Positions 3,231-58,848 of a stretch of DNA of 64,000 nucleotides are shown piece after piece. The stretch spans positions 96,152 through 160,151 of the forward strand of contig CBDDBH010000025.1 of the NCBI GenBank assembly GCA_965225625.1. The letters run 5' to 3'. This stretch comes from Gammaproteobacteria bacterium. GTDB taxonomy: Bacteria > Pseudomonadota > Gammaproteobacteria > JADZEE01. The stretch's first letter is position 1. Every line of letters begins with the position of its first letter. The translations under genes were made by a program, and so were the position numbers. Below the pieces are notes generated by a model. That model was given only the letters and a program-made list of their open reading frames with translations, did no database searches and was not told the origin of the DNA.

Positions 3231-4418
3231 TTGCCCATGATTGACTATAGCACTGTGCCATATCCCATCCGCCCGGATTTCGCCGCGGCGCATAATCGCT
3301 ACTGGGAGCGCCTGGCCGGACCGGGGAGCTGGCTGACCGGTGCGCAACGCATCGAGGTTGCCCGCGAGGTCAGACACGCGTTCGATTGCGATTTCTGCCA
3401 GCGCCGCAAAGATGCGCTGTCGCCGACCCATGTCGATGGTACCCACGACAAGGTCACCAGCCTTTCCGACACAATGATCGAGATGATCCACCGGGTAGTC
3501 ACCGATTCGGGCCGTCTCACCAAGGCCTGGTTCGACGGCCTCATCGCCCAGGGTCTCAGCGAAGAGGAATACGTCGAGATACTCGGTACCGTCGTCAATC
3601 TCTTCTCCATCGACGAGTTCTGCCGCGCGCTTGCACTACCACCCAATCCATTGCCCGAACCCAAAGCTGGTGAACCCACGGGCTACCGTCCACTGACGCT
3701 GGTCAATGACGGTGCCTGGGTCAAAACGCTGCCGCATACCGTCGACGAAGGGCCGGAGTCCGATCTGTGGCCAGGTAGGACTGGTTACGTCATCCGCGCT
3801 TTGTCGCTAGTGCCGGACGAAGTTCGCTCCATGCTGGATCTGCTGGAGGTACATTACCTCAGCAACGATTACATTTTTAAAGTCAAAGGATCACCCAAGG
3901 GAACGCTAACACGGGTGCAGGCCGAGGTAGTCGCCATTCGAGTATCCGCACTCAATGGCTGTTTCTACTGAACCTCCTCACATGCGGTGATGCTCCGTGA
4001 GAGCGCCACGAGCAACGGAGAGACAGTCAACCTGCAGGGCCTGTCAGATCCGAATTGCAGCAAGCTGGACGATGTACCGTATTCCGAGGCGTTGATCGGT
4101 TTATCCGACGCGTTTCTAAGCCGTGATGCCGAAGCGTTGGCAGCCGCGCGAGATGCCCTGGAGCGCGCGATGGGGGTGGAAGCGATGATCGATGCGGCTG
4201 GGGTCGCCTCGAATTTCCAACGCATGGACCGGATTGCGGACGGCGCCGGGATCCCCTCGGACGCGCCGATGGTGATCATGGGCGAGGATATCATCGAACA
4301 GTTAAAGCTGGACGAATACGTGTCCGCTGGAAATACCCCCAAACTGTCGTGGCTGATGCGCCAGATCATGAAATTCCTGGCAGTGCCCAAGCTGCGCGAG
4401 CGCTTTTCACTCGACTAG
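3231..4418 (+). CDS. AhpD/carboxymuconolactone-decarboxylase-family protein, predicted selenoprotein (TGA at 3969..3971 read as Sec)
   Basis: ORF 3231..3971 ends ...IRVSALNGCFY-TGA. The same frame continues TSSHAVMLRESATSNGET... to 4418. Read through, the site is RVSALNGCFY[U]TSSH, which matches the AhpD/CMD signature RVSxxNGCxYCxxxH with the second Cys replaced by UGA. Confidence 0.7.
3993..4020 (+). promoter_or_regulatory. Candidate bacterial SECIS-like stem-loop just 3' of the in-frame UGA
   Basis: There is a 6-bp perfect stem, ctccgt (3993..3998) paired with acggag (4015..4020), and a G-rich loop. It starts 22 nt after the UGA. An alternative fold is ctcac (3977..3981) with gtgag (3997..4001). 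Confidence 0.35.
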
Positions 4419-4485: not shown

Positions 4486-6388
4486 ATGCGCGCTCACAAA
4501 CCCGCAATTTTAATCCTCGCGGCGTTGTTACCGACCGCGCTTGTAACGATGGCGCACGCCTGGACAGCCTATGGCGGAGGCGCTGGCGGCGGTCAGTATT
4601 CGCCGCTCGCGCAGCTCACAGTCGACAACGTGCAACGACTCGCGCCCGCGTGGATCTATCACACGGGTGAACTCGCCGACGGCAGTAACGGCATCGCGCC
4701 GACGACCTTCGAAGTCAATCCGATTTTCGTCAACAACGCCCTATATTTCTGTACACCCTACGGTCGGGTCGTGGCGCTGCGACCGGATACTGGCCAGGAG
4801 TTGTGGAGCTTCGATCCCGGCATCGATCGCACGACAACCATTATCGGCGCACACATCTGTCGTGGTGTCAGCTATTGGGAAGATGCACGGGCCGAACCGG
4901 CTAGCGTTTGTCGCAAGCGGGTGTTTCACGGTGTCGCAGATGGCCGCTTGATCGCGTTGGACGCTGATACCGGGCGCCGGTGTGAGGACTTCGGCCAGGC
5001 TGGAGAAGTCCGCTTGGACGCATTCGACTATCACGGCCACGGGGATGTCGGCCTGACATCGCCGCCCGCCGTCGTCAGGGATCGCGTCGTCGTGGGCGCC
5101 AGTTTTCCAAGCTACGAAAAAACCGATTCCGTAGATGGGATTGTTCGCGCATTCGATGCCCGCACAGGAGGACAGGTTTGGTCCTGGAATCCGATCCCGC
5201 CGTCGTTGAGCAGCAGCATTGGCGGCGCCAACGTGTGGGCACCGATATCCGTCGACCGTGCGCGCGGATTGGTGTTTGTGCCGACCACCAGTCCCACACC
5301 GGACATTTACGGCGTAGCGCGCGAGGAACCCGTGCCATACGCGAACGCCGTAGTCGCACTCAACGCAGACAGCGGCACCGTGCAATGGCACTTCCAGACC
5401 GTGCATCACGATTTGTTCGACTACGATCTACCGGCGCAGCCGCTGCTAGTTGAACTTCAACGCGGGAATGCGACCGTGCCTGCCGTGGTGCAGGTGACCA
5501 AGACCGGTTTTGTGTTCGTGCTGCATCGTGAGACGGGCGAACCGGTGTTCGCCCGTCGAGGAACGCCCGGTGCCGCCATCTGATTTGCCGGGTGAAGTCG
5601 CCGCCGCGACCCAACCGTTTTCAACTGAACTGGCACCGTTTGCGAGACAGGACTTCACGGCCGACGAAGCATGGGGTTTGACGTTCTGGGATCGGGGCCG
5701 TTGCCGCGCGGCCGTCGAGGCGCTGCGCAATGAAGGACTGTTCACACCGGCGAGTCTGCGAGGGAGCATGTTGATACCGAGTTCCGCCGGCGGTGCGAAC
5801 TGGGGTGCCGCTGCTTTTGATCCGCAGCGGCAGATCCTGATTGTCAACAACACCAATCTGGCGTTCTCGTCGCGCCTTATTGAACGCGAGAAATTCGATC
5901 TGGAGCTGGCGCGGCAACGCTATGCCACCGTCGGCATGATGCCCGATACCCCCTACGTCTGGATGGAAGCGCCTATCATGTCGCCCTTCGGTGTGCCCTG
6001 TACGCCGCCCCCTTGGGGGGCCATCACCGCCTACGATATGACGGCAGGTGAGATCCTCTGGCAGATTCCTTTCGGGCGTATGCCGGTCGGCCCGTTTCGC
6101 ACACCGCGGGCCTGGGGCGCACCGCACATGGGCGGCGCCATCATTACCGCCGGCGGGCTGATCTTTATTGGCGCGAGCCTGGACAGCAGGCTGCGAGCCT
6201 ACTCTTTGGCTGACGGCGAACAGGTTTGGGAAGCAGAACTCCCGGCCCCCGGCGTCGCCACGCCAATGACTTACTCGGCCGGCGAACCGGCGCGGCAGTA
6301 CGTGGTTATTGCCGCAGGCGGCCACGCAAGACTCAGCTCGCAATTATCAGACGCACTCGTCGCTTTTGCCTTGCCGGCTGCTCACTAG
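4486..6388 (+). pseudogene. PQQ-dependent dehydrogenase (quinoprotein glucose/alcohol dehydrogenase family) with signal peptide; apparent +1 frameshift near 5550
   Basis: The N-terminus has a signal peptide and W-rich propeller repeats. Two frames overlap, 4486..5583 and 5510..6388. Joining them gives ...RETGEPVF|PVEERPVPPSDLPGE, which is typical of quinoprotein dehydrogenases. A single extra nucleotide in gttcgcccgtcgagg separates the frames. Confidence 0.65.
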
Positions 6389-9105: not shown

Positions 9106-10605
9106 ATGAACACGTCGCACCAAGTGCGAATGCCAACTACCAACTCGCAAGCACCGACTCGGCGTAGACACCTCAACCACGTATCGAAACACGATACAAT
9201 TCACAGGCCAGCATTCGGGGGGCATCGCTTGGCCGACTCCATCATCCAGCAGTTAGTCCACCGCAAGATGTTCCGCATCACGGCGGGGTATCTGGCGGTG
9301 GCGTGGGTGCTGTGGCAGGTGGTAGACACTACGTGCCCGACCTTTGAGTGTTCGCTGTCATTTCAGAAGTCCATATTCTGGTTTCTTGTAGCCGGATTGC
9401 CGGTCACGCTTACAGTTGCTTGGGTGCACTGGAAGACGGCCATCCTTGTCGGTGTGGGAATACTTGCCGGGATAACGGTCACTCTTCTGGTGACTCGAGC
9501 TACATCGCCTGCCCCAGAGTCTAAAACTACCGCGATTACCCCGGTGACCGAAGTTACCCAGCCTGCCCCCACACCCACCGCAACAGTTGAGGAGAAGTCC
9601 ATCGCAGTGCTGCCGTTTGTGAATATGAGTGATGACCGGGAGCAGGAGTATTTCAGTGACGGTATATCGGAGGAAATACTAAACGGTCTCGCTAAGGTAG
9701 AGACGCTGCGTGTCGCTGCGCGGACCTCGTCGTTCTTTTTCAAAGGTAAGGACGCCGATCTGGAGACAATAGCTGAGAAACTGGGTGTCGCCCATGTCCT
9801 GGAAGGTAGTGTCAGAAAGGCGGGTGATCGACTTCGTATCACGGCGCAACTAATTAAGGTCGATGACGGCTTTCACTTATGGTCCGAGTCTTACGACCGT
9901 GAACTGACGGACATCTTTGCTGTTCAGGATGAGATTGCCAATGCAGTTGTCGATGCGTTGAAGATAGAACTGGGTGTTACAGCGGGCAGTACATTGGTAG
10001 ATATCGGCACGACCAACCGCGAAGCCTACGATTGGTATTTGCGCGGCAAGGATGCATTGGTTACCGGTAGCTTAGAGGGATTCCAACGCGGCGTTGGATA
10101 CTTCAATCGCGCGATTGAGCTGGATCCCGACTATGTTGATGCTTACGCCTATCTCGCGTTCGCGCACATATTGCAACATCCGTTTACGCTCTACCAAAAA
10201 CCCTACCGAGAATTAGCACCGGACATCAAACACGCCTACTCGCGGGCCTTGGCATTGGAGCCCGCACACAGTGCGGCGCTGTGCGCTAAGGGATATGACA
10301 AGATGTTTTTAGAGTGGGACTGGTCCGAGGCGGGGAAGCTATTCCGAGCAGGGACTGGCGAGGGTAAGGTTAATGACGTTTGCCTGGGAACCTATGTCGC
10401 GTGGTATCTTCTAGCGCTCGGTCAGTACGAGGAGGCAATCGCATTACTTCGCAGCGCCGAGCGGAGCGATCCCCTGAATCTCGAGCTTAAACATCAGCTC
10501 GGCGCTTATCTTGGACAATTTGCCGGCGAGTGGGAAGAAGGGAGCAACCACCTCCGTGCAGTAATCGACGCCGTGCCCGACCACGTATTCGCGCTCACCG
10601 ATTTA
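9106..10605 (+). pseudogene. TolB-N-like/TPR-repeat membrane protein, 5' portion, interrupted by an IS630-family insertion
   Basis: It has a TM helix MFRITAGYLAVAWVLWQVV and a TolB-N-type motif IAVLPFVNMSDDREQEYFSDGISEEILNGL followed by TPR-like helices. The reading frame runs into the IS at 10606. The ORF-track start at 9022 is probably too early. Confidence 0.65.
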
Positions 10606-11706
10606 CTCAGCAGTCGCCAATATAGGCGACAGATGGAGCAAGAAAGAATGATCGAACAAGGTGGGGCATACGCTTGAGTTGGGTGAGTTGCTCCTCGATC
10701 TTCTCGCGCAGTGTTTCGCCCGCCCGCAGCGTCCGTCGCGCCGCACCCGTGCGCTTGACGTGACTCCACACCCATTCATCGGGGTTCAGGTCTGGCGCGT
10801 AACCGGGCAGAAAATGCAGGCTCAGCCGGCCATTCGTCGAAGCGACGTAGTCGCGCACGCACGCGGTCTTGTGCGCCGGCAGACTGTCGAGCACGAGATG
10901 CACCGGTTTGCGCCGGCCCCGCATGAGCTGGCGCAGCAAGGTGACAAACAAATCGGCTTTGAGCGCGCCGCTATAGGTGCAAAACCAGAACGCCCCGTTG
11001 GCGTTGACCGCCGAGGCGGCACTGAACGATTGACGCTGTCCGGGTCGGTACACGACCGGCGTCTGGCCGCGCACGCCCCAGGTCTTACCGTGCACCGTAT
11101 CAGCACGGAAGCCAGACTCATCCCAGAAAAACACCTCGCCACCGTGCTGTTTCGCTTGACGGGCGATGGCTGGGAAGGTTTCACGCTGCCAGCGTTCAAT
11201 CGCCTCGGGGTCCCGCTGATAGGCTCGCTGCAGCGGCTTGTGCGGCGTCAATCCCAGTTTCGCCAACAACTCCCCGACCGCCGTGACGCCTATCGTCACC
11301 CCGAACTTCTGCGTCACCAACTCCACGACCACCGCGCGCGTCCACAAGCCGAAGTCCAATCCATACTGTCGCGGGTCACGACCATTGATCCAGCGGAACA
11401 CCTGTCGCTCTTGCGCCGCGCTCAGGGTTCGTGGCCGCCCCGTAGCCTTCGTCGAACGCAACGCCTTGATGCCGACACCCGGCTGCAGCGCCGCTTTGAT
11501 CCATTTGTAGATGGTCGTCCGGTTGAACCCGAACGATGCGATCACCGTCGCCGGCGACTCGCCTTCGCGAACGCGCTCTATCGCCATCAAGCGAATAGCT
11601 TCCAAGGTCGAATGGTCAAGCGTGCGGCCGTCCAGTTTCATATCTGATCCGATCGGTACGCTCTCAGAAAGTTCCATCGATGTCGCCTTATTTATCGACT
11701 AGTGAG
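10606..11706 (-). mobile_element. IS630-family insertion sequence, copy 1 (1101 bp, imperfect ~27-bp terminal inverted repeats, TA target-site duplication)
   Basis: The left end reads ctcagcagtcgccaatataggcgaca. The right end, reverse-complemented, reads ctcactagtcgataaataaggcgaca. TA dinucleotides flank it at 10604..10605 and 11707..11708. It is about 99% identical to copy 2. Confidence 0.8.
10607..11677 (-). CDS. IS630-family DDE transposase
   Basis: The 356-aa protein has an N-terminal HTH, a DDE core and the IS630/Tc1-type motif YAPDLNPDEWVW. Confidence 0.85.
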   Translation of the reverse strand: MELSESVPIGSDMKLDGRTLDHSTLEAIRLMAIERVREGESPATVIASFGFNRTTIYKWIKAALQPGVGIKALRSTKATGRPRTLSAAQERQVFRWINGRDPRQYGLDFGLWTRAVVVELVTQKFGVTIGVTAVGELLAKLGLTPHKPLQRAYQRDPEAIERWQRETFPAIARQAKQHGGEVFFWDESGFRADTVHGKTWGVRGQTPVVYRPGQRQSFSAASAVNANGAFWFCTYSGALKADLFVTLLRQLMRGRRKPVHLVLDSLPAHKTACVRDYVASTNGRLSLHFLPGYAPDLNPDEWVWSHVKRTGAARRTLRAGETLREKIEEQLTQLKRMPHLVRSFFLAPSVAYIGDC

Positions 11707-11708
11707 TA

Positions 11709-12170
11709 ATTGCTATACATCTCAATTCGGGTCAACTGGAAAAAGCGGAATCGCTGCTCCGTTCGGAAAGTTTAAAAGGGCCGAACACCTATCCGTATGC
11801 CATGTGGTTGCGGGTTGTGCTTGACGTTCTCCGCGGTGATAGCGCTAAGGCGCAATCTGTCTATGATGAGGCGCGGCGCATTGGCGAGAGCAGCGTCAAC
11901 AAATCACCGGACCTGTGGCATGGCCTGGGGTTCGCAGCGGCGTCATTGGGTCATCTAGACGAAGCGATAAGCTGGTTCAACCGCGGTTTCGAGGAGGAGG
12001 CTTTGGCTAGCGTCGTGGTGCGCCCGTTCGTAACGTCGTGGTCAGCGTTTAAGCAAGGCCACGGCCCTGCCCTCATGGCCCACCCCGACTTCCAAGCGTT
12101 CCTTGCGAAAATGAATCTAGACGATGCGTCAATAGCGGCGTTGGAGGCGGCTGCAGCAGCAGGGGATTAA
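11709..12170 (+). pseudogene. TolB-N/TPR protein, 3' portion downstream of the IS630 insertion
   Basis: The frame opens immediately at the IS boundary. Removing the IS and one TA copy restores a continuous in-frame ORF ...ALTDL|IAIHLNSGQLEKAESLLRS...MWLRVVLDVL..., which continues with TPR-like sequence. Confidence 0.65.
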
Positions 12171-30776: not shown

Positions 30777-32682
30777 TGTACACGCAGCGTGAGACCCCAC
30801 TCGCGCGGATCCGAGAATGCACCAACCACGGTATTGAATCCGAACAGACTCACGTCTTCAGCCATTGCGCGATAGCGTTCGTCGGTCACATTTCCACCGC
30901 CGCGATGTTACCGAGTATAGTCGCACCCGATTCGAGCGTATTACCCTGCAAATCGTTGTAATCGTAGAAGAAACCGGCAAGATTGGCGCGCAGCCGATTA
31001 TCAAACCACTCGGATTTTACGCCGCCCTCATAGGCCCAGATCGTTTCCGGATCAGCGGCGGGCGGGACTACCGGATCAAGCGCGCGGCCATTGAATACGC
31101 CACTGCGGAAGCCGCGCGATACAGATGCATATACCATCAAATCGTCGCGCCAGTGGTACTCGATGCCGAACTTGGGCGAAATGTCATCCCAGTTGTCTCG
31201 AATGGTATTAAAAGGCCGAACCAGCGCACCCGACATATAATTATCGTCGCTCTTTTTTTCATAGGTGTAACGAACACCGGCAGTCACCGCTAACTTCTCC
31301 GTCAACGAGTAGGTGCCTTGCCCGTATCCCGCATAGCTCTTGGTGTCTGTGCCGATAAAAATAAAGAGCGGCGGCGAGACCTCAACATACTCCTTAAAAC
31401 CACGGCCAACGCGACCTAAGCCGGTCGTAACGATAGCCTGAAAAAACGGAATATTCTCGATATCACGACCGCGTTCATGAAAATAGAAGAAACCGGCGAT
31501 CCAATCGAGCCGATCGTTGAACGCACGCCCGCTCAGTTGAATTTCCTGACTGGTTTGTTTGTGATCAATTTCGATTTCCTGCTCAATCTCCGGGTATGGC
31601 GTGCCATCCAGATCCCAGCCGGTGTGTGATTCGATGCGCCTATAGGACGTGATCGATTTTGCCGTGATATTGTCGGTAATATCCCAGCTCGCTGTAAGCG
31701 AGAAACCGTAAATGTTGTTTTTGTCGATATTAGCTTCGTTCGCAAATGACTCGTCCGGGCTCGTAGCGACAAAACTCTCTATGGGCGGCAATCCCTGCGG
31801 ATTGAGGAAAAAGATGTCATAAAGATCGCTCAACGCTGGCGCGCCGCCCGCCGGCGTCGGCACGAAACTTAAGATTTGCTCCGTGTTACCCTTTTGACGC
31901 GTACGTGTGTAATCCGCGATGAACCGAAAATTGAGGTCGTCGCGCGGTTCCCACTCCAGCTGTCCGCGAAACACATCCCGGTTTCTATCGCTCGATTCCT
32001 CGCCGCTTAGCACGCGCTCTCCCCAACCGTCCTGATTGAGCGTCGCCGCCGCAACTTTGAGGAAAAGTTGATCCTTTATGAGAGGAATGCTGACATTGCC
32101 TTTGACATCCATCCGATCGCGCTCGCCGACGGTGATTTCACCGTTTACCTCAAATTCGCGCGCCGGGCTTTTCGTGATCACCTGGATGGCGCCGGCCGTG
32201 GTATTGCGACCGAACAGCGTGCCTTGGGGACCTTTCAGAACCTCTATTCGTTCAACATCCACCAAGTCGAGAGCGGCGCCAGTCGAGCGTGCGATGTAGA
32301 CGCCGTCGAGATAAAACCCCACGGCCTGTTCGGCAGTCATAATGAAATCGAACAGCCCCAGACCACGGATGAAATATTGTCCGTGTGAACTACCTCCACC
32401 AAGCGAGGTGAACGAGGTTACATTGGGTACCACATTGGCCAGGTCGAAAGCATTGGTCAACCCACGATTCTGGAGTTCCATTGACGTCAATGCCGTCACT
32501 GCCACAGGTGTTTCCTGCAGGCTCTGCTCGCGCCTCTGTGCGGTGACAACTATCTCTTCGAGTGCGCCGGAAATCTCGCCACCGCTCGTTTGCGCTAGTG
32601 CGAATGTCGAACCCGCTGCCAAATATACACAACTGCTAACAGACGTCAGCAAAAGGGTAATCAGCCGTAGTTTGGTAGTCAT
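30777..32682 (-). pseudogene. TonB-dependent outer-membrane receptor; frameshift near the C-terminus (about 30890)
   Basis: It has a signal peptide, a plug EIVVTAQRREQSLQETPVAVT and a barrel. The last ~35 residues, NVTDERYRAMAEDVSLFGF...EWGLTLRVHY, lie in another frame after a 1-nt slip in atcgcggcggtggaaatg. Confidence 0.65.
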
Positions 32683-33108
32683 ATAACTGACCTGATGAGT
32701 TACCGGAGACGACAGCTCGTAGACGTCACTGAGTCTGTTTAACATTGTTAATCTCCCTCCATCTACTGCTCGTTGAGTACGTGCGCGCCAATCCTACGCG
32801 TTCCCCACGACTAAAGCAGCTTTTCCGATACGACGGGAGACCGGTGGGCTTTGTCAGGTTGTTGTGCGTATGACAGATCGTTTGGCGCAAGACGCGCCTT
32901 CGTTGTTCAGTAGGCGCGCGTCACCTGCGACCAAATTCGAAACGCCCTAGATCGTAGTTCACGCTAGTTCTGTGCTTTCAGGAGATGACGACCGAGGCGA
33001 ATTGTTCGCATATTAATCTTGGCAGTGCGGCACTGACGGGATCACCTCGCGTTTTGCTGCCGCGTAACCGCGGAGCTTATCCGTTGTTATCTCCATCGGC
33101 ACTTGCAA

Positions 33109-33698: not shown

Positions 33699-35024
33699 TC
33701 ACGCGGCAATACTGGTTAGCCCTTTCCAAAGCGGAGCGATCACGACACTCAATTTTGCATGCGCCTGGCTGAGCGCGGCCTCCACCTGCTCCGGGCGTGG
33801 CGCCCGAGCAAAGATGAAACCGAGGTAGCTGGAGCCCTCGGGCAGCGGCACCAGTTGATAATGATCCCGCACCTGTATGGTCACTTCCTCGACATAAGGT
33901 ACCTCGCGGGCCGCACCCACCCCCTCGACCCGTCTGAGGATCCCGGCCTTCGGCGTCGGGATCATCAACACGCCGGCCGCCTCTTGCCAACCTGCAAACA
34001 CCAGCGGGGCGCCCACGGCGTTCGATAACACCAGCCCCTCGAGGCTGCCGGCGAGACCGTATTCGAACAGCCGACTGCACAGCCCACCGATGGTCCGCGA
34101 CGCGATCTCGAGCATCCATACCCCAGCCGCATTGATGCGGCACTCAGCATGTATCGGCCCGTGCCGGAGCCCATAAGCGCGGCAGGTCTCGGCCACCCGC
34201 TGTCGAACCTGGCGCTGCACGCCCGCGTCGAGCCGTGACGGGGTCACGAAGTAGGTCTCTTCAAAATAGGGGCCATTTAGGGGAGCGGGTTTATCAAAGA
34301 CCGCGAGCACGTCGAGTTCCCCGTCGGTCAGCATCGCCTCGACCGCAACCTCGACGCCCGGAATAAATTCTTCCACGAGGAGGTAGTGCCGCTCTTCCGG
34401 GTCGTGGGCTTCGGCAACGATACGGGCCACACGTGCGCAAGCCGCGCGCAGCTCGTCCTCGCTATCCGCCCGGATGACGCCGCGGCTTGCCGACATGGCC
34501 AGGGGCTTGACCACGCACGGGAATTCGATGCCGTCGAGCTGCCCCGCGAGCGGCTTCTCCAGACTAATGCGCGCATGCGAGGGGACCGGGATCCCGGCGG
34601 CACTAAGGTGTGCCCGCGCGAGGTCTTTGCGGCGTGCAATGCGCACGGCATCCGGTTCGTTATGTGGCAAGCCCAATCGGCGTGCGGCGAGTGACGCCAG
34701 CTCGGTCGTGATATCGTCGGTGCCGATAATTGCGGCAAACGATTGGCGACGCGCTTCCTCGACGATGACGTCAACGGCACCGCGGCTGTCGCTGAAGTCG
34801 AGGTGCAATCCTTGCGCGTACGCACTGACCAGCGAATGGTGGCCTTCGGACGCGATCAGGCACTCGATGCCGAGGTGCCGAGCCGCTTCAACGTAAGGGA
34901 CGGTCCGGTAGCTCCCGTGCGGAGCGATGATCAATACGCGTGCTTTGCCCTGTGCCGACGTACGCTGCAGGTCTTCACCGCCGGCAACACGGGTTCGGTT
35001 TCCAGCATCGATCGTTGGAGACAT
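33699..35024 (-). CDS. ATP-grasp domain protein (carboxylate-amine ligase-like)
   Basis: 441 aa with ATP-grasp-type motifs (VVKP..., EEFIPGVE.., ...E.N). Confidence 0.6.
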   Translation of the reverse strand: MSPTIDAGNRTRVAGGEDLQRTSAQGKARVLIIAPHGSYRTVPYVEAARHLGIECLIASEGHHSLVSAYAQGLHLDFSDSRGAVDVIVEEARRQSFAAIIGTDDITTELASLAARRLGLPHNEPDAVRIARRKDLARAHLSAAGIPVPSHARISLEKPLAGQLDGIEFPCVVKPLAMSASRGVIRADSEDELRAACARVARIVAEAHDPEERHYLLVEEFIPGVEVAVEAMLTDGELDVLAVFDKPAPLNGPYFEETYFVTPSRLDAGVQRQVRQRVAETCRAYGLRHGPIHAECRINAAGVWMLEIASRTIGGLCSRLFEYGLAGSLEGLVLSNAVGAPLVFAGWQEAAGVLMIPTPKAGILRRVEGVGAAREVPYVEEVTIQVRDHYQLVPLPEGSSYLGFIFARAPRPEQVEAALSQAHAKLSVVIAPLWKGLTSIAA

Positions 35025-35926: not shown

Positions 35927-37315
35927 TTATAGTTCCGCGAACTGCTCGTCCGTCGGCTCGGCGCAGCAATACCACGGCTCACTCAGCTCCGCCGACGGCG
36001 CGCAGTCCGCCATCGACACGGGCGGCGCCGGCCGATCCAGGTATGCATGCGCAAGTGTCCAGACCTCCCTGAATAACTGTTCGCGCGGCTTGCCTGCGGC
36101 TTGCTGGACGATTCGCTGGATCTCGGCCTGCATTTCGTCCACCTTGGGGTCGGCACTCGACCACCGATATACGAGCGCCGCCTGGTCGAGCGGGCCGACG
36201 TGATCGCAGATCTCCTGCAATTCCAGCAGCCGCGAGCCGGGCGGGATCAAAAGGCGTATGGCAAGCTGCACGGGCGCGACGGCGCCCACCAGTTCGAGTT
36301 CGGTCAACGCCACCAGCAGATCTCGGTAGCCGGCCAGTGTCGTCCACGGCGTAAACGCGACAAACGTCGGCGACAGCTTCAGCCCCAGCTCATCGAAATT
36401 GCGGACCACGTGGTAGAAATCCTCGCGCGTGTGGCCTTTGTCCAGGAGGGTAAGGATCCGATCATCAACCGACTCGACGGCGGTGGTGACGAAAAGACAC
36501 CCTGTGCGTTTTAATATCGGCAGCAGCCTGGCGTGCGCGAGTAGGTGCTCGACCTTGATGGTCACGTCATAGGTCAGCTCCGGAAATTGTTCGTGCAGCG
36601 CCTCGACGATCCGCACGCCATGGGTTGGCCCATTGAAGAAGTCGGGGTCACCGAAGGTAATATGGCGTGCGCCCGCTAGCACTTGTTGGCGCAGGTCAGC
36701 CAGCACGATCGCGCGCGGCACGGCACGAAACCGCCCGTTATACACTGGGACTACCGGACAGTGGCGGCAGCGGTGCTTGCAGCCCCGACTTGCCTCGACG
36801 TAGCCGGTAACGCGAGCCTCGCCGTCGGGCATTCGCAGAAACGCATAACGGTCGAGCGCTGGGAGGTCGCTGCGATCCGGTACCAGAAACCGCTGCCCGA
36901 CTACGGAGATCCGCGGTTCCGGTTGCTCGCCGGTCTCACAAGACACCCCGGATTCGAGCCGATCGGCGAGTGCCTTGAGTCCCGACTCGAATTCACCGCC
37001 CAGTACCGTTCCGACACCGAGTTCGCGAAGGTACGCTTCATTCATCGGCGCATAAAGACCATAGGCGGCGATATGCGTTCGGGGGTTGAGGAGCTTTACA
37101 CGGGGGATCAGCCGGGCGGCCAGCCGGGTCGCCGTATGCATCGGTACATAGAAAGCCGCTAAGTCGGCTTTGCCAACAACGTCTTCGTCCCAGCTCTCGA
37201 CAGCCAGATCCAAGGTCCGTACTGAATCGCCGCGCTCCCGCAACCAAGCCACAGGCTCCGCCAGACCAAAGGGTTGGTGGCCGAGTTCATAGGTGGAAAT
37301 GAGGACGACGTTCAT
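35927..37315 (-). CDS. B12-binding-type radical SAM protein with a C-terminal CCAEP tail (Cys form of the CUAEP/CCAEP-tail radical SAM family)
   Basis: It has CKHRCRHC (CxxxCxxC) and an N-terminal B12-binding-like domain. The extreme C-terminus reads ...SEPWYCCAEPTDEQFAEL. Confidence 0.65.
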   Translation of the reverse strand: MNVVLISTYELGHQPFGLAEPVAWLRERGDSVRTLDLAVESWDEDVVGKADLAAFYVPMHTATRLAARLIPRVKLLNPRTHIAAYGLYAPMNEAYLRELGVGTVLGGEFESGLKALADRLESGVSCETGEQPEPRISVVGQRFLVPDRSDLPALDRYAFLRMPDGEARVTGYVEASRGCKHRCRHCPVVPVYNGRFRAVPRAIVLADLRQQVLAGARHITFGDPDFFNGPTHGVRIVEALHEQFPELTYDVTIKVEHLLAHARLLPILKRTGCLFVTTAVESVDDRILTLLDKGHTREDFYHVVRNFDELGLKLSPTFVAFTPWTTLAGYRDLLVALTELELVGAVAPVQLAIRLLIPPGSRLLELQEICDHVGPLDQAALVYRWSSADPKVDEMQAEIQRIVQQAAGKPREQLFREVWTLAHAYLDRPAPPVSMADCAPSAELSEPWYCCAEPTDEQFAEL

Positions 37316-37685
37316 CCCAACTCAACCTGTCAAATATGGAGCGGCGAATTTTTTTCCGTGGCGGTGCGCACAGATGTCATCATTGGCAAAGCACTCGTCA
37401 CCAAGCTTAAGCACGGCTATGGTCTTGCCGCCCACCTCGACGCATTTGGCCCAACGTCGAAATCGGAAACTTTAGCTACAGAGACAAAATTTGACATGGT
37501 CACTCCAATGCCGAATGCCCACGGGCAACCGATCTCAAGATTTGCACCGATCACAAGCGCTCGGGCTTTGGTTACAAGCATAGATTCTGCAAATCCGAAT
37601 GACAACCGGCGTGATCTCTGACGCTGTCCAGAGGCCGGGATCGTTGAAGGGCGCAAAAACTCTATCTGTGTTGTGTTCATCCACC

Positions 37686-38140
37686 GAGTCGTGTGAAAAA
37701 CTGCTGCTAGAACAATAACAAGCAGGAGTAGACCGTGTTGCAATGGTTTGTCGCCGCGTGTTCAGCGTGTTTTCAATCGAGGACACAACTTATTGCCGAG
37801 AATCTGTGCCTTCGACAGCAGTTGGTTGTTCTCAAACGTCGCCAAAAGCGACCGTTGCTGAACGATTCGGATCGGCGCTTTTGGATCCTAGCGAGTCGAT
37901 GGTTGGTGCGTTGGCGCGCTACGTTAATCGTTGTGCAACCAGAGACAGTATTGAGTTGGCATCGCAAAGGTTGGAAAGCGTTTTGGCGCTGGCGTTCGAG
38001 GCGGGTTGGGGGAGGCTGTGTGTGGCGAATTGCTATTTTGCGCTAGCCAGCCTTTTCCATGGAAGGGTTTTGCAACCGGTTGCATCAAAAACGACTCCTC
38101 ACACTCCTCAAATCTAGAGTTCCCTGCTTTTCCCCTGTTA
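37686..38140 (+). mobile_element. Internally deleted derivative of an rve-type (IS481-like) IS: left end with ~100 codons of transposase fused to the right-end region
   Basis: The left end, cgagtcgtgtgaaaaactgctgc...ttgcaatggtttgtcgccgcgtgttcagcgtgtttt, is shared with 43815... The ORF MLQWFVAACSACF...LRQQLVVLKRRQ is homologous to the N-terminus of the 42650 transposase. The right-end block (38011..38140), with the palindrome ttgcaaccggttgca, also occurs at 45708... Confidence 0.55.
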
Positions 38141-43814: not shown

Positions 43815-44066
43815 ACCATCGAGTCGTGTGAAAAACTGCTGCCAGAATAATAACAAGCAGGAGTAGCCGCGTTGCAATGGTTTGTCGCCGCGTGTTCAGC
43901 GTGTTTTAAATCGGGGACACAACTTACTGCTGAAATCATGTGTCTTCGCCAGCAGTTAGTTGTTCTCAAACGTCGCCAGCCGCGACCTACATCACGTCTA
44001 TCGGATGGCTGCCTAAGTCCAGACGACGTTTTTTCCCCCTTCGGCAAGCGACTAAAGGTAACCTAA
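43815..44066 (+). mobile_element. Left-end fragment of the same rve-type IS as at 37686, with a truncated transposase N-terminus (MQWFVAACSACFKSGTQL...LKRRQ)
   Basis: The first ~125 nt are near-identical to 37686..37810, then the sequence degrades. Confidence 0.55.
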
Positions 44067-50695: not shown

Positions 50696-50844
50696 GTTTC
50701 GCTCACTCCATAAATACATTTGCGGGATCACTCACGTTGTTACTTCCGTGCATCTGAATTCTGCGCGGAGCCGAAACTGTCGACGCCAAGGGCGCTCTTT
50801 CGACTCCAATGCCGGCGGCAGCGATAATAGCAAGAATCGATTTA

Positions 50845-51945
50845 CTCAGCAGTCGCCAATATAGGCGACAGATGGAGCAAGAAAGAATGATCGAACAAGG
50901 TGGGGCATACGCTTGAGTTGGGCTAGTTGCTCCTCGATCTTCTCGCGCAGTGTTTCGCCCGCCCGCAGCGTCCGTCGCGCCGCACCAGTGCGCTTGACGT
51001 GACTCCACACCCATTCATCGGGGTTCAGGTCTGGCGCGTAACCGGGCAGAAAATGCAGGCTCAGCCGGCCATTCGTCGAAGCGACGTAGTCGCGCACGCG
51101 CGCGGTCTTGTGCGCCGGCAGACTGTCGAGCACGAGATGCACCGGCTTGCGCCGGCCCCGCATGAGCTGGCGCAGCAAGGTGACAAACAAAGCGGCTTTG
51201 AGCGCGCCGCTATAGGTGCAAAACCAGAACGCCCCGTTGGCGTTGACCGCCGAGGCGGCACTGAACGATTGACGCTGTCCGGGTCGGTACACGACCGGCG
51301 TCTGGCCGCGCACGCCCCAGGTCTTACCGTGCACCGTATCAGCACGGAAGCCAGACTCATCCCAGAAAAACACCTCGCCACCGTGCTGTTTCGCTTGACG
51401 GGCGATGGCTGGGAAGGTTTCACGCTGCCAGCGTTCAATCGCCTCGGGGTCCCGCTGATAGGCTCGCTGCAGCGGCTTGTGCGGCGTCAATCCCAGTTTC
51501 GCCAACAACTCCCCGACCGCCGTGACGCCTATCGTCACCCCGAACTTCTGCGTCACCAACTCCACGACCACCGCGCGCGTCCACAAGCCGAAGTCCAATC
51601 CATACTGTCGCGGGTCACGACCATTGACCCAGCGGAACACCTGTCGCTCTTGCGCCGCGCTCAGGGTTCGTGGCCGCCCCGTAGCCTTCGTCGAACGCAA
51701 CGCCTTGATGCCGACACCCGGCTGCAGCGCCGCTTTGATCCATTTGTAGATGGTCGTCCGGTTGAACCCGAACGATGCGATCACCGTCGCCGGCGACTCG
51801 CCTTCGCGAACGCGCTCTATCGCCATCAAGCGAATAGCTTCCAAGGTCGAATGGTCAAGCGTGCGGCCGTCCAGTTTCATATCTGATCCGATCGGTACGC
51901 TCTCAGAAAGTTCCATCGATGTCGCCTTATTTATCGACTAGTGAG
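50845..51945 (-). mobile_element. IS630-family insertion sequence, copy 2 (TA target duplication at 50843..50844 and 51946..51947)
   Basis: Its ends are near-identical to copy 1. Its transposase differs at about 4 residues. Confidence 0.8.
50846..51916 (-). CDS. IS630-family DDE transposase
   Basis: 356 aa, about 99% identical to the 10607..11677 copy. Confidence 0.85.
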   Translation of the reverse strand: MELSESVPIGSDMKLDGRTLDHSTLEAIRLMAIERVREGESPATVIASFGFNRTTIYKWIKAALQPGVGIKALRSTKATGRPRTLSAAQERQVFRWVNGRDPRQYGLDFGLWTRAVVVELVTQKFGVTIGVTAVGELLAKLGLTPHKPLQRAYQRDPEAIERWQRETFPAIARQAKQHGGEVFFWDESGFRADTVHGKTWGVRGQTPVVYRPGQRQSFSAASAVNANGAFWFCTYSGALKAALFVTLLRQLMRGRRKPVHLVLDSLPAHKTARVRDYVASTNGRLSLHFLPGYAPDLNPDEWVWSHVKRTGAARRTLRAGETLREKIEEQLAQLKRMPHLVRSFFLAPSVAYIGDC

Positions 51946-52089
51946 TAAACGACGTTTCCTGTTTCATGTATAGCGAGTGCCCTTGTTGAAATATCTGCTT
52001 GTAATGCCATGAACATCTAGTCCGATCCTTGACAATTGCAACATCGAGATTTGTTCCGAGCGCCGGTCAAATAGAGTAAAGGAGGTCTT

Positions 52090-52884: not shown

Positions 52885-55800
52885 ATGGCGCTGAGAAAGA
52901 GCAGTACGAAAACAAACTCCGGGTCTTCGACGAGTAAGAAAAGAACCTCGAGAACCGCCCAAAAGCGTACATCTAAGAGTGCGGATGCTGCGCGGGTCGA
53001 GGATACCGCATATCTGCATTTACTGCAGAAACTCGCAGTTGCCGCCAATGAAGCCTCGACTGTCGAAGAGGCGTTTCAGGTGTGTCTCGACGAGGTGTGC
53101 GCGCTTACAGGGTGGCCGGTGGGCAATGTATACCTGCTAGGCGAAGACGGCACCGGTGATCTCGTTCCGGCTGGGCTGTGGCACCTCGACAAACCCCGGA
53201 AGTTCAAAACCTTTCGGGACATCACCGAAAAGACGCGGTTCGCGCCGGGTATTGGTCTGCCCGGCCGCGTCCTGGGCAGTGGTGAGCCATTGTGGGTCAC
53301 CGATGTCACTCAGGACCCCAATTTCGCTCGCGCAAAGCACGCCGAAGATATTGGCGTTAAAGCGGCTTTTGGGTTTCCGGTGCTGGTGGGAACTGAAGTT
53401 ACGGCCGTGCTGGAATTCTTTGCCGTTGACGCCATAGCGCCTGATAAACAATTACTGGAAGTGATGGCGCATGCGGGAACGCAACTTGGGCGGGTCATTG
53501 AGCGCAAACGAGCTGAAGAAGCGCTCAAGGTGGCAAAGGACGCAGCCGAACGCGCTTCGGCTATCGCTAAAACGACGCTTGAGAACACGGGCCAGGGGAT
53601 CCTCATGGTGGATGGCGATGGCCAGATTCTCGTGCACAACGATCAGATGCTCGACTACGTTGGGGTATCCAAGGAAGCGGCGGCGGACTGTCGTACTTTC
53701 GAAGAATTGCTTGAGGCTGGCAAACAAAACGTCAGTGAAGAATTTGTGCAACGGTCCAGTCGTCTTGCCCAGGAAAGCGGTTATGCGAGCTACGAACTTT
53801 CGACTGAAGACGGCAAGTGCATCGAGATCCGGCAGACTCCGCTCACCGATGGAGGGTTCGTTCGCACCTATACCGACATCACCGAGCGCAAACGCGACGA
53901 ACAAGCGCTACGCGAAAGCGAAGAACGACTCCTGTCCCTTCTCGAAGCGAGTCCAGTCGGCGTGGCGATCACCCGAGACGAAGATTCAAAGGTTGTATTT
54001 TTGAATACGCGTTTTGCTGAGTTGTTCCACATAGAAAAAGACGAAATGCTTGGGCAAAACGCCAAACGACTCTATGCGCATGTCACGGACAGGCAGCCGC
54101 TGATTGAGGAGTTAAGGACCAAAGGCGAAGTCCGCGACATGGAAATGATGATGCAGCGGCCGGATGGAGGTACTTTTTGGGAGTTGATGTCTCTCTTCCC
54201 GATGGCCTACCAGGATCAACCTGCGATTGTGGGTTGGCATTACGACATCACCGAGCGCAAGCAGGCTGAGAAAACACTAACAGAGCGTGAAACAAAGTTC
54301 CGAAGTCTGTTTGAATCCTCGCGCGATGCGGTGTTGCTAATCGACGATGAAGCTTTTCTCATTGATTGCAACGAGGCGACGTTACGGATGTTCGGATCTG
54401 CCAGCATCGATGAAATGCGTAGTACGCACACCGCCGATCGGTCACCGACGGTGCAGCCGAATGGGCAAGCCTCGCGAGTCCTAATTGCCGAAAATAGAGC
54501 AGAAGCTCGTTTGACAGGCAGCAGCTTCTTTGAATGGACCTACCTCCGTGCGGATGGAACAGAATTTCCCGCGGAAGTGCGATTGAGTGCGATGGAGCTG
54601 GACGGGAAACCTGTAACGCAGGCGGTCGTTCGGGACATTACCGAGCGCAAGCAGACTGAAGAAGCCCTGCGCTTCCGTCTTGCATTGGAGCAACTGATAG
54701 GCAAAAGTTCATCTCGCTTTGCTATTGCGGATGATCTGGAAGCGGCTATTGATACGTCGTTAAAAGAGATCGGAGAATTTAGCGGCTCGCAGCGGGCGTA
54801 CCTATTTAAATTCTCAAGCGATGGGAGATTTATGACGAATACCAACGAATGGTGTGCGCCCGGAATAGAGTCTCAAATCGATATGTTTCAAAATCTTCCA
54901 ACGTCCGAATTGGGAGTAATGGATCTAATAAATCGACTTGCATCGGATGGGATTTATTATTGCAGAGATATTTCACAATTACCGCCAGAGCAACATGAAA
55001 TAAGAGAGTTTTTCACAAGTATAGGAATTAATTCTGTTGCGATTTTCCCGATTGTAGAGAATGGGCGCATGGTAGCGTTTACCGGTTTGGATGTTCCTCA
55101 GCGATTAAATGCAATGAGCAACCCGGATATATCACTGCTCAAGGTGTTTGGGGAAGGCTTATATGGCGCCGTTCAACGCCGCAAATCTGAAGACGCGGTC
55201 ATAGTTGCTAAGAATGAAGCAGAGTCGGCATCTGCTATTGCCAATACTACGCTTGAAAATATGGGTCAGGGAATACTAATGGTAGATGCAGACGAAAACG
55301 TCCTCGTCTGCAATGATCAACTGCTCGACTATATCGGCATTGACAAGGAAGCAGCGCGCCAGTGCCGATCCATGGAAGATTTCTTCGAACTCGGGACGGA
55401 AAGCTTTACCGATGAGGGTAAGGAGGAGGCTTTGCATTTCGCGGAAGTGGGCGGCCATGCGACTTGGCAGCGCGGCACCACGTCCGGCCGGGCACTGGAG
55501 GTTCGGCAAAATCCCCTGGCCGGCGGCGGCTTCGTCAGGACCTATACCGACATCACCGAGCGCAAACAGGCTGAAGAGCGACTTCGCTTCCAATTTGAAC
55601 TCGAGCAAATCGTGAGTGCCATATCCGAGCGGTTCGCAGCTACTGGCAATATCGATGTCGCAATCAGTAAATCGCTTGCAGAACTTGGAGAACTCACCGT
55701 CGGCAACCGAGTCTCTGTCTGGCGCATCTCGGCTGACCGCACAACGCGCTCCATGACTCACGAATGGTGCCGGGTCGGTATCGAGCCGCAGATAGAAATG

Positions 55801-58800
55801 TTCCAAAACATCAAATTGGAACCGCGCGAATTCTCACCGATTATTCAGGAAATATTTAAGGGTGAGCCTTTTCACCTACGCGATATACATGAACTCTCGG
55901 ATGAGAAAATCGGGATACGGGATTTTTTCCAGGAGATAGGCATCACGTCATTCGCGGTACTCCCCATTATGGAAGAAGGACAATTGATCGCGTATTTCAC
56001 CTTAAACGAACCACAGCGCTTGAGTAGTCTCGATACCCGGGATGTTTCGATGCTCCAGGTTTTCGGGCAGAGTCTGCACAGCGCAATCAAGCGGCGTGAA
56101 GCCGAGCAGCAACTCCTCAAATTGAACACCGATCTCGCCGCCAGCCAGGCACAGCTTCAGGACGTGACCAGTACTATGCCCGGGATCGTCTATCAAGACG
56201 TGCGAAAAGCTGATGGTGAATGGCAACTATTGTGGGCAAATCATGCTCTAGAGCGATATCACGGCGTGGAAGTTGAAACCATAAAAGAGGATTTTGCCGC
56301 CTTTGGCCGCTATATACCAAAGGAAGATGTTGAGGGTCTTATAGAAGTGATCGAGGAAAATTCGCGGACGTTGTCGGAATATACCTACGAATACAGAGTG
56401 CAGTTGCCGGGGCAAGACACCACCTGGTTAAGCGCCACGGCGACCCCACGCAAACAAGAAGACGACAGCATCATTTGGACCGGTGTTACGACAGACATCA
56501 CTGGACGCAAGCGAATGGAAGAGCGGCTTGAAGGAGCCCATCGGGATTTAACCGAGAGTCAGACTCAGCTTCAGGCCGTTCTGGATAATTCCCCCGCTCT
56601 GATTTACATCAAAGATGTAGAAGGCCGGTATCAGTTAACCAACCGCAAGTGGCTGGATGTCTTAGGCCTCGATGAAAAAAAAGTTATTGGGTACACCGAT
56701 GTAGAGGTATTTGACCCAGAATTTGCGGAGGGATTCGCAGCCAATGACCGTAGAGTGCTGGAAACGGGTCTCATGCAGGAAATAGAGGAGCAAGCGCCAC
56801 AAGCTGATGGTGTGCACACCTATATGTCCTACAAGTTTCCGCTACTAGATCAATTGGGCCGAACTTACGCGGTGTGCGGCATTTCGTCGGACATCACCGA
56901 GCGTAAGCGGGCGGAAGCAAAACTCAAGCTGGCCCACGCTGAACTCGTCAAGAACCAAGGCTTAATCCAGGGGGTACTCGATCATTCACCGGCCCTGATT
57001 ACTATCAAGGACCTTGAAGGCCGGTTCATGCTGGCCGACCGTCAATGGCTGGACCAGATGGGACTCACCGAGGAGGCCGTGATGGGGAAGACGGACTTCG
57101 ACCTCTACCCCGAAGAGCTCGCCCGCAAGTTTGAGTCTGAGGATCGCAAGACCCTGGAGCTTGGCAAGGCATTGGAAAAAGAAGAAACCGCGCCCATGAG
57201 GGATGGTCTGCGTACCTTTTGGGTCTATAACTTCCCGTTGTTCGACGAGGAGGGGAAACCTTACGCGTTGTGCAACATCTCCACCGACATCACCGAGCGC
57301 AAACAGGCCGAAGAAGAACTCAAGCTAGCCCAGCAAGCGGCCGAGCAGGCCAGCCGAACCAAGAGCGCGTTCCTCGCCAACATGAGCCATGAGCTTCGTA
57401 CCCCAATGACTGTCATTACCGGATACTGCGAGATGCTGATGGAGGAGGCCGTGGATCTCGGACAAGACCACTTCCTACCCGATCTCGAGAAGATCAACCA
57501 AACAGCTAAGCATCTACGCGAGCTAATCGATCAGATCCTCGATCTGTCCAAGATCGAGGCCGGTAAGATGGAGTTGTACCTCGAGAGCTTCGACGTATCT
57601 TTGATGATTGAAGAGATTGCTACAACCATTACTCCAGTGATCGAGAAAAACGGCAACACCTTGGAACGAGAAATAGCAGATGATCTTGGGTCCATGCACG
57701 CCGATTTGACCAAGGTCCGGCAGTCGCTATTCAATTTGCTGAGTAATGCAGCAAAGTTCACCGAGCATGGGATCATCTCTTTGCGCGTAGCGCGCGAGGA
57801 TGATTGCTTCGAGTTCACCGTTGGCGATACCGGGATTGGGATCCAGGCCGACGACCTCAGCAAATTGTTCGAAGAGTTTACCCAGGCCGATTCCTCGACG
57901 ACACGACAGTACGGTGGCACGGGTCTCGGTCTCGCCATCACACGGCGCTTCTGCCAGATGATGGGCGGCGAGATTACCGTGGAGAGTACGGAGGGCCAGG
58001 GTTCATCGTTCACAATCCGCCTGCCGGCCAAGGTAGCTGACGCGGTCAAGCGCGAGGATAACCAAGCGCCGGATCCGGTCACAGAAGCGGTTGCAGCTTC
58101 GGTTTCAGGCGCTTCACAGACGGTTGTGGTCGTCGACGACGACGCCAACACCCGGGAATTGCTTTTAAGAACGCTGACGCGCGAAGGCTTCACTGTCGTC
58201 CAGGCCGCGACCGGTGAGGAGGGCCTGCGGCTGATCCGGGGAGTCAATCCCATTGCAGTCACCCTCGACGTTCTGATGCCAGGGATGGATGGTTGGTCGG
58301 TACTTCGGGAATTAAAAGCCGACGAGGCGCTCCGTGATATACCCATTATCATGTTGACCATGGTTGACGAGCGCAACATGGGGTATGCACTCGGTGCCGC
58401 GGACTATCTGAGCAAACCGATCGATCGGGAACATTTATCGAGGATCTTGAAGAAATACCGCCGTGGAGACCCCCCATGCCCGGTCCTCGTAGTCGAGGAT
58501 GATCCGCAGACGCGCGAACTACAACGACGGCTCCTGGAAAAGGACGGATGGCGGGTCTACGAGGCTGAGAACGGTCGTGATGCGCTCGAAATCATGACCA
58601 AGCATCCACCGGTTTTGGTGATGCTGGATCTCATGATGCCCGTCATGGACGGCTTTGATTTCCTGTACGAAATGCGCCAAGTCGAAGCCTGGCGAACAAT
58701 ACCCGTTATAGTGGTTACGGGAACCGAGCTGACCGAGAAGGTTCGCCAGCGCCTGCAAGGCGAGGTCGAGCGCGTCATCGAAAAAGGCGCTGTCACCACA

Positions 58801-58848
58801 GATCAGTTGCTTACGCAGATACGAGAAACCCTGGCAGCATTGCGATGA
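52885..58848 (+). CDS. Hybrid sensor histidine kinase (N-terminal GAF, about seven PAS/GAF modules, HisKA, HATPase and two receiver domains)
   Basis: Module boundaries TDITERK(Q/R)AEE recur seven times. HisKA is MSHELRTPM. HATPase is GGTGLGLAI. The receivers are [14 protein letters not shown]...D and [14 protein letters not shown]...D. Confidence 0.85.

Follow-up and report, generated by a model that had tools for sequence, protein, structure and literature searches.

The stretch of DNA analysed here, referred to below as the window, comprises 64,000 nucleotides (nt) of a Gammaproteobacteria bacterium (GenBank assembly GCA_965225625.1, contig CBDDBH010000025.1, positions 96,152 to 160,151 of the forward strand). 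Near its start lies a gene related to the alkylhydroperoxidase AhpD, with genes for OsmC, CRP, tRNA-Met and a pyrroloquinoline quinone (PQQ) dehydrogenase as neighbours, and its reading frame is interrupted by a TGA. A previous interpretation of the same DNA, made without database searches (hereafter the sequence-only reading), proposed that this gene belongs to the AhpD/carboxymuconolactone decarboxylase (CMD) family and that its in-frame UGA encodes selenocysteine (Sec, U) in place of a catalytic cysteine. The features of the gene are collected in Table 1; all coordinates are those of the window unless a locus is named.

Table 1. Features of the AhpD-related gene and its predicted Sec insertion signals
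Feature	Position	Strand	Details
AhpD-related selenoprotein coding sequence (CDS)	3237..4418	+	393 aa + TAG stop; TTG 3231 is an alternative start
In-frame UGA, predicted Sec codon (U245)	3969..3971	+	position of Mycobacterium tuberculosis AhpD Cys133
Selenocysteine insertion sequence (SECIS)-type hairpin, within CDS	3987..4009	+	arms 3987-3995 / 4001-4009; A-C mismatch 3990/4006
C-terminal AhpD-like active-site segment	3924..3983	+	E230 (3924-3926), C242 (3960-3962), Y244 (3966-3968), U245 (3969-3971), H249 (3981-3983)
N-terminal C51-D-F-C54 motif	3387..3398	+	C51 (3387-3389), C54 (3396-3398); in diverged first AhpD/CMD-like domain, ~residues 1-160 (3237-3716)

The coordinates of the TGA were confirmed, and past it 148 further sense codons (3972-4415) follow in frame, up to a TAG at 4416-4418. 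The sequence-only reading had described this frame as open without a further stop, which holds, while its count of 149 codons was one too many, a trivial difference. Around the UGA the read-through peptide is RVSALNGCFY-U-TSSHAVMLRES, its first part exactly as quoted before; the longer read-through sequence AIRVSALNGCFY-U-TSSHAVMLRESATSNGE spans the UGA, with RVSALNGCFY directly preceding TSSHAVMLRESATSNGE. The product has 393 aa from the ATG at 3237, which is the start used in public gene calls, and 395 aa, the approximate length given earlier, from the TTG at 3231; either start is possible because homologs have two to three residues before a conserved IDYS. The second CxxC motif that had been pointed out in the N-terminal half, CDFC, is likewise present. 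Gene callers break this CDS into an open reading frame (ORF) of 244 aa (3237-3971) and a spurious ORF of 142 aa (3987-4418).

The TGA is not a local sequencing error, since the identical 244-aa N-terminal ORF is found in four independent metagenome assemblies (ERZ28763709, ERZ21829562, ERZ28669063 and ERR14231557). Nor has the genetic code been reassigned: TGA serves as the normal stop of at least four family-validated genes in the window, which rules out global reassignment of this codon. A TGA with at least 137 open codons on both sides occurs only three times in all six frames of the window, and the other two sites showed no sign of selenoprotein genes.

When the 393-aa product was scored against profile libraries with U read as C, it matched NF041238 at 449.4 bits (cut-off 175; E 9.5e-135), with residues 11-362 aligned to profile positions 1-356 of 357, that is, end to end. 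NF041238 is an equivalog-level NCBIfam model named 'AhpD_rel_CFYUT, alkylhydroperoxidase-related (seleno)protein', and the gene carries the CFYUT motif of that name, reading NGCFY-TGA-TSSH. The AhpD/CMD-family selenoprotein proposed earlier is thus matched over its full length by a curated family whose very name holds the motif. The CMD domain of Pfam (PF02627; 31.8 bits, threshold 23) and the AhpD core domain TIGR00778 (31.8 bits, cut-off 27.8) were both recognised at residues ~218-257. The product scored only 16.8 bits against TIGR00777, the model for true AhpD, far under its cut-off of 191.95, and so the gene was not filed as an AhpD orthologue; the score against the peroxidase-related model TIGR01926 (45.3 bits) was also under its cut-off (81.8). 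A recent review lists NF041238 as a CxxU selenoprotein and equates it with the Sargasso Sea selenoproteome's 'hypothetical protein 1' (PMC13188914, 2026). The original paper on that protein (Zhang, Fomenko & Gladyshev 2005, PMC1088965) presented it as a selenoprotein family not described before, having both a conserved CXXU motif and a stem-loop that resembles a SECIS. The family has therefore been known since 2005 and is part of NCBI annotation rules, and the gene in the window is a routine further member of it.

Conservation of the UGA was assessed at the protein and the genome level. A whole-database protein search returned 355 relatives, the 120 best of which (56-98% identity) are all products of ~246 aa covering only the first 62% of the query, and all 29 aligned database relatives end exactly at N-x-C-F-Y. 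A genome scan with one genome per species then gave 79 loci at 36-66% identity, holding 81 gene copies, from Gamma- and Alphaproteobacteria, Myxococcota, Actinomycetota, Binatia and others. In 78 of the 81 copies CFY is followed by TGA, in two by a Cys codon and in one by a Val codon; the scan patterns left the Sec position out but were derived from Sec-type members, and as such the 78:2 ratio of Sec to Cys may overstate the rarity of Cys forms. Both Cys forms are uninterrupted ORFs, one in a Henriciella metagenome-assembled genome (MAG; locus L029, TGC, CFYCT) and the other in the cultured Pseudomaricurvus alkylphenolicus KCTC 32386 (L030, TGT, CYYCT). Four copies of the window's own sequence (L001-L004) all have the TGA.

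In the TGA loci a further 114-160 codons are free of stops downstream of the TGA, except that two of these loci run off the fetched DNA. Translated matches (tblastn) across the 79 loci extend over residues 2-388, and the C-terminal part of the 79 homologs shares 29-57% identity (mean 42%) with that of the window over 114-148 residues. H249, L253, R332, A334, D335 and G338 are invariant after the UGA, and T246, R305 and F327 nearly so. Furthermore, the UGA aligns with Cys in the solved structures 6k40, 2oyo, 3c1l, 2pfx and 2prr. The placement of the UGA at the second Cys of a CxxC motif, on which the sequence-only reading had rested, is thereby borne out by the two natural Cys forms as well as by solved structures (6k40, 2oyo and 2pfx among them), and the downstream frame, which it had taken to be intact, is conserved as protein in 79 homologs. 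This combination of a conserved TGA and conserved downstream protein excludes both a chance nonsense mutation and an arrangement of two genes.

Two side observations concern the same set of loci. In a Pseudomonadota MAG (L056, 2482-2484) the Sec/Cys position is GTC (Val), the hairpin described below is lost and the 160-codon downstream frame is open; this may be a redox-dead variant or an artefact of sequencing or assembly. Several genomes have two paralogues of the family, both of which possess a TGA and a hairpin of their own and some of which lie only 1-5 kb apart: at 7678 and 9019 in L006, at 10703 and 15844 in L076, on OZ242265.1 (L005 and L024) and on CBDBPJ010000003.1 (L031 and L036).

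A SECIS-type hairpin was found shortly after the UGA, where the sequence-only reading had suggested that a bacterial SECIS (bSECIS) be looked for. Its 5' arm (GUG-A-UGCUC) and 3' arm (GAGCG-C-CAC) enclose the loop CGUGA (3996-4000), in which the G at 3997 is invariant in the family. Published bSECIS criteria are an apical loop of 3-9 nt with G in the first two loop positions, an upper stem of 4-16 bp, 16-37 nt from UGA to loop and a minimum free energy (MFE) of -7.5 kcal/mol or lower (PMC13188914). The hairpin lies within all four: the loop is 5 nt with G at position 2, followed by U, the upper stem has 5 bp and is extended by a further 3 bp, the UGA-to-loop spacing is 24 nt, and local folding gives an MFE of -9.3 kcal/mol and pair probabilities in the range 0.84-0.91.

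Comparative evidence for this element came from an ungapped alignment of 72 Sec-type sequences over 45 columns, 68 of them distinct. Among the distinct sequences the five core pairs are 97-100% paired, with compensatory changes at pair 27-33 (CG in 64, UA in 4), pair 22-38 (AU in 28, CG in 12, and others) and pair 23-37 (UG in 34, UA in 30, GC in 2). Overall, 79.7% of cells were paired, compared with at most 48.7% in controls with slid partners, and none of 500 shuffles reached the observed covariation score. Entropy at third codon positions is 1.5-1.9 bits at the four-fold sites on either side but drops to 0.1-0.3 bits within the core and loop of the hairpin: Leu is always CUC or CUU, Arg is almost always CGU, and the codon after this near-fixed CGU always ends in G or A, matching its pairing partner. 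Such frozen synonymous sites across the hairpin indicate selection on the RNA and not on the protein. Both Cys forms and the Val form, which serve as a natural control, have lost the hairpin.

The protein in turn resolves into two domains. The C-terminal domain (residues ~162-342) aligns with 6k40 (E 5e-15), 2oyo, 3c1l, 2pfx and 2prr (E up to 2e-8), the closest solved structures by sequence, and N-G-C-F-Y-U-T-S-S-H lies on N-R-C-V-Y-C-A-V-S-H of a solved AhpD-like protein. E230, C242, Y244, Cys or Sec at 245, and H249 are invariant in 26 diverse members, and the offset of the TIGR00777 alignment places E230, C242, U245 and H249 on AhpD positions 118, 130, 133 and 137. Proton-relay pentads have been described as E118/C130/H132/C133/H137 in M. 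tuberculosis AhpD and as E36/C48/Y50/C51/H55 in PA0269 (PMC3141380), and the spacing of E230/C242/Y244/U245/H249 is identical to both. In the N-terminal half, C51xxC54 superposes on C242xxU245 when the two halves are aligned with hhalign, and a confident model of residues 1-244 found only AhpD/CMD-fold proteins as its best structural matches. Both results support the earlier guess of a tandem-domain form: the N-terminal half represents a further AhpD/CMD-like domain that has diverged, has a conserved CxxC and lacks the Glu/His relay.

Taken together, we consider it highly probable that 3237-4418 is one gene, encoding a two-domain, all-helical thiol/selenol oxidoreductase of the AhpD/CMD superfamily (NF041238) in which UGA is decoded as Sec, and the UGA at 3969-3971 almost certainly encodes an active-site selenocysteine. 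During translation, SelB carrying Sec-tRNA(Sec) would bind the hairpin at 3987-4009 and deliver Sec to the UGA instead of termination. In the folded protein, C242-F-Y-U245 with E230, Y244 and H249 would reproduce the AhpD proton relay, the U245 selenolate taking the place of the attacking cysteine. We take U245 to be the attacking residue on the understanding that Cys133 is the more reactive thiol of AhpD. U245 might then attack an oxidised partner, either a peroxiredoxin-type sulfenate or a disulfide, or a peroxide directly; C242 would resolve the intermediate to give a selenenylsulfide, which an upstream reductant would re-reduce. The degenerate N-terminal duplicate and its CxxC may pass electrons, bind the partner or be structural.

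The family is closely tied to Sec-using genomes. In 11 homologous loci ARAGORN detected a tRNA-Sec no more than a few kb from the gene, while its other tRNAs numbered only five across all loci, and tblastn placed sel genes at most 10 kb away in ~22 of the 79 loci. In L007 (12007-17696) the order is the gene, tRNA-Sec, selB (401 bits), selA (580 bits) and an NADH-oxidoreductase-SelD fusion; in L062 (171-9027) it is selB, selA, selD, tRNA-Sec and then the gene. Two further features of these loci were recorded: selD in the gammaproteobacterial ones is often fused to a pyridine-nucleotide-disulfide oxidoreductase (TIGR03169 + TIGR00476), and a TonB-dependent receptor lies ~3 kb upstream of the gene in 23 loci.

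Several observations weigh against a functional selenoprotein with the proposed chemistry. No selA, selB, selD or tRNA-Sec lies in the 64-kb window or in ~7 kb beyond each end: tblastn with SelA, SelB and SelD of L007 and L062 gave no match at 1e-10 in the window or in L001-L004, and ARAGORN found only the tRNA-Met in the window. Candidates for sel genes that had been guessed by size in the window proved to be a TonB-dependent receptor, a radical SAM protein, a reductive-dehalogenase-like protein and an ATP-grasp enzyme. The in-frame TGA scan found no second credible selenoprotein gene in the window, and the radical SAM gene of NF040546 in the window is a Cys form, with the tail WYCCAEPTDEQFAEL. 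Folded alone, the hairpin is not exceptional relative to shuffled sequences (z -1.4 over 62 nt, +0.34 over 131 nt). RNAalifold on the 72-sequence, 45-column alignment gave no consensus structure, and Rfam gave no SECIS family match, either at the gathering threshold across the window or at E up to 10 over 3800-4200, returning only the tRNA-Met and one chance viral match. Among the called genes within 10 kb there is no Pfam match to AhpC-TSA/peroxiredoxin. Finally, no member of the family has apparently been characterised biochemically in the literature on it, and therefore the redox mechanism above rests on homology.

The RNAalifold and Rfam results are taken to be limits of the methods, Rfam presumably having no suitable model, and the former was replaced by the explicit pair counting with controls reported above, together with per-sequence folding. 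Since single-sequence folding is not significant, the comparative evidence matters more. With regard to the machinery, the intact hairpin and the intact, conserved downstream frame argue that decoding is active; on these grounds we infer Sec insertion in this organism.

A different role for a genuine selenoprotein was also weighed, namely that the protein handles selenium or serves Sec biosynthesis, for example by reducing selenium species or moving them towards the SelD fusion enzyme, and does not reduce peroxides or peroxiredoxins. The gene does stand beside selA, selB, selD or tRNA-Sec in ~22 of 79 species, which represent at least two classes, no AhpC/peroxiredoxin partner is near it in the window, and its TIGR00777 score is far from that of a true AhpD. 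However, selenoprotein genes are often found with sel genes simply because the trait as a whole is passed on or lost; neither the window nor its two closest relatives (L005 and L031) have sel genes next to the gene; and the AhpD relay pentad, being intact, suggests thiol-disulfide or peroxide chemistry of the ordinary kind. We regard this role as unlikely. It is quite unlikely, too, that this two-domain, Sestrin-like AhpD selenoprotein is functionally coupled to the Sec machinery itself, acting in selenium reduction or delivery to SelD, or in protection of the pathway, and not as an enzyme of general peroxide defence. Because adjacency to tRNA-Sec, selA, selB and an NADH-oxidoreductase-SelD fusion recurs, in about a quarter of the sampled species, a functional tie to the Sec pathway is suggested, but that adjacency is more simply explained if the Sec trait is inherited together.

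The remaining alternatives would deny that the gene is a selenoprotein at all. A pseudogene, formerly a Cys-containing AhpD-like gene whose catalytic codon happened to mutate to a stop too recently for the downstream frame to have decayed, could draw on the lack of Sec machinery seen in the window and on other window genes that seem broken (the split PQQ dehydrogenase and the TGA-interrupted ORF pair described below). Against it stand the same TGA in 78 of 81 copies across several phyla at 36-66% identity, the conservation of the C-terminal part at the protein level, a hairpin with compensatory changes that follows the UGA only in TGA forms, and the identical sequence in four assemblies. The conservation data effectively refute the pseudogene, which is very improbable, and agree with the sequence-only reading, which had also judged a random mutation the much less likely cause. 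Two separate genes, a 244-aa protein ending at the TGA and an independent ~142-aa protein from GTG 3987, are scarcely credible: public gene calls give exactly this pair and the 120 best database relatives are all ~246-aa products, but the split would break one AhpD-like domain partway along its active-site helix, the solved homologs 6k40 and 2oyo align unbroken across the UGA (profile positions 162 to 342), the Cys forms are single uninterrupted ORFs, and truncated calls are the usual artefact of software that does not model Sec.

The rest of the window holds a number of further features. The PQQ-dependent membrane dehydrogenase (TIGR03074; 4486-6388, + strand) is represented by two overlapping ORFs (4486-5583 and 5510-6388) matching profile positions 153-502 and 501-783; it is intact (633 aa) in L002 and L003 and split in L001 and L004, and the split is most likely an assembly frameshift and not a pseudogene. 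At 23615-24658 (+) a TGA (24086-24088) and a short gap lie between an ORF of 157 aa and another of 158 aa in the same frame, with high GC content at third codon positions on both sides and the context LSRLFR-TGA-RFLEQLL, which has no Cys or redox motif; the pair looks like an interrupted mobile-element gene.

The radical SAM protein at 35927-37315 (-) scored 610 bits against NF040546, 'CUAEP/CCAEP-tail radical SAM (seleno)protein'. This family, a selenoprotein in other organisms, is related to the arsinothricin synthase ArsL; in the window an ATP-grasp enzyme and a TonB-dependent receptor are encoded nearby (associated ORFs 33699-35024 and 30886-32745, both -). The receptor ORF at 30886-32745 (619 aa) has weak partial matches to NCBIfam models of TonB receptors with Sec motifs (PCPU, PUIUD, CU and FCYXU); it ends well short of the profile ends, with no read-through of its stop, and may be truncated.

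Two copies of a 1.1-kb insertion sequence (IS) with a DDE_3 transposase (10599-11709 and 50838-51948) are 99.4% identical. In ERZ21829562 the two ends of the window fall on different contigs (near end, ctg256229l; far end, ctg257166l), so the window may be joined differently across the IS copies in different assemblies. A direct repeat of ~165 nt (37681-37844 and 43816-43978; 91.5% identical) is placed in intergenic or gene-edge DNA, its copies 6 kb apart. A large signalling locus (52885-58848, +) comprises the gene for a multi-sensor protein of 1987 aa, rich in GAF and PAS domains, and after it a pair of response-regulator genes, one of which is fused to a SpoIIE phosphatase. For the 859-aa product at 60620-63196 a database look-up gave no record, while the neighbouring gene widened the view by ~7 kb, in which there were no sel genes.

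For annotation, the value of this analysis is that what was called as a 'hypothetical protein' of 244 aa plus a spurious ORF of 142 aa is restored to one 393-aa selenoprotein, and the same miscalled split is found in every public copy examined. The gene also implies, short of proof, the use of Sec by this uncultured marine-type gammaproteobacterium. Adjacency to sel operons, the tandem AhpD-like architecture and the Cys forms, rare in this sample, provide modest leads to the function of the family.

Compared with NF041238 and hypothetical protein 1, the product shows no material difference, having the same CFYUT sequence, CxxU redox motif and SECIS-like hairpin. The two-domain architecture, the frequent adjacency of sel genes and the covariation of the SECIS are details additional to those in the two accounts of the family cited above (PMC1088965, PMC13188914). 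With M. tuberculosis AhpD (1gu9, 1knc) it shares the all-helical AhpD/CMD fold and identical relay spacing, whereas it is twice as long, with an extra N-terminal AhpD-like domain, has no ahpC neighbour within 10 kb, and carries Sec for Cys133 and, as in PA0269, Tyr for His132. The motif N-x-C-[FVY]-Y-C-x-x-x-H aligns throughout with the peroxidase-related AhpD-core proteins (TIGR01926; 6k40, 2oyo, 3c1l, 2pfx and 2prr), but these are single-domain Cys proteins of ~190 aa, to which the family described here adds the N-terminal domain and a C-terminal tail. Likeness to Sestrin-2 (5cuf), a eukaryotic stress and leucine sensor without Sec, is one of fold and architecture only, at 15% identity, and implies no shared function. 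AhpD-like and CMD-like selenoproteins are abundant in marine bacteria (PMC2398784), and those named AhpD-like 1, AhpD-like 2 and CMD-like (COG2128, PF02627; PMC2398784) share the CxxU motif within an AhpD/CMD domain; they are separate single-domain families, while NF041238 has a review entry of its own.

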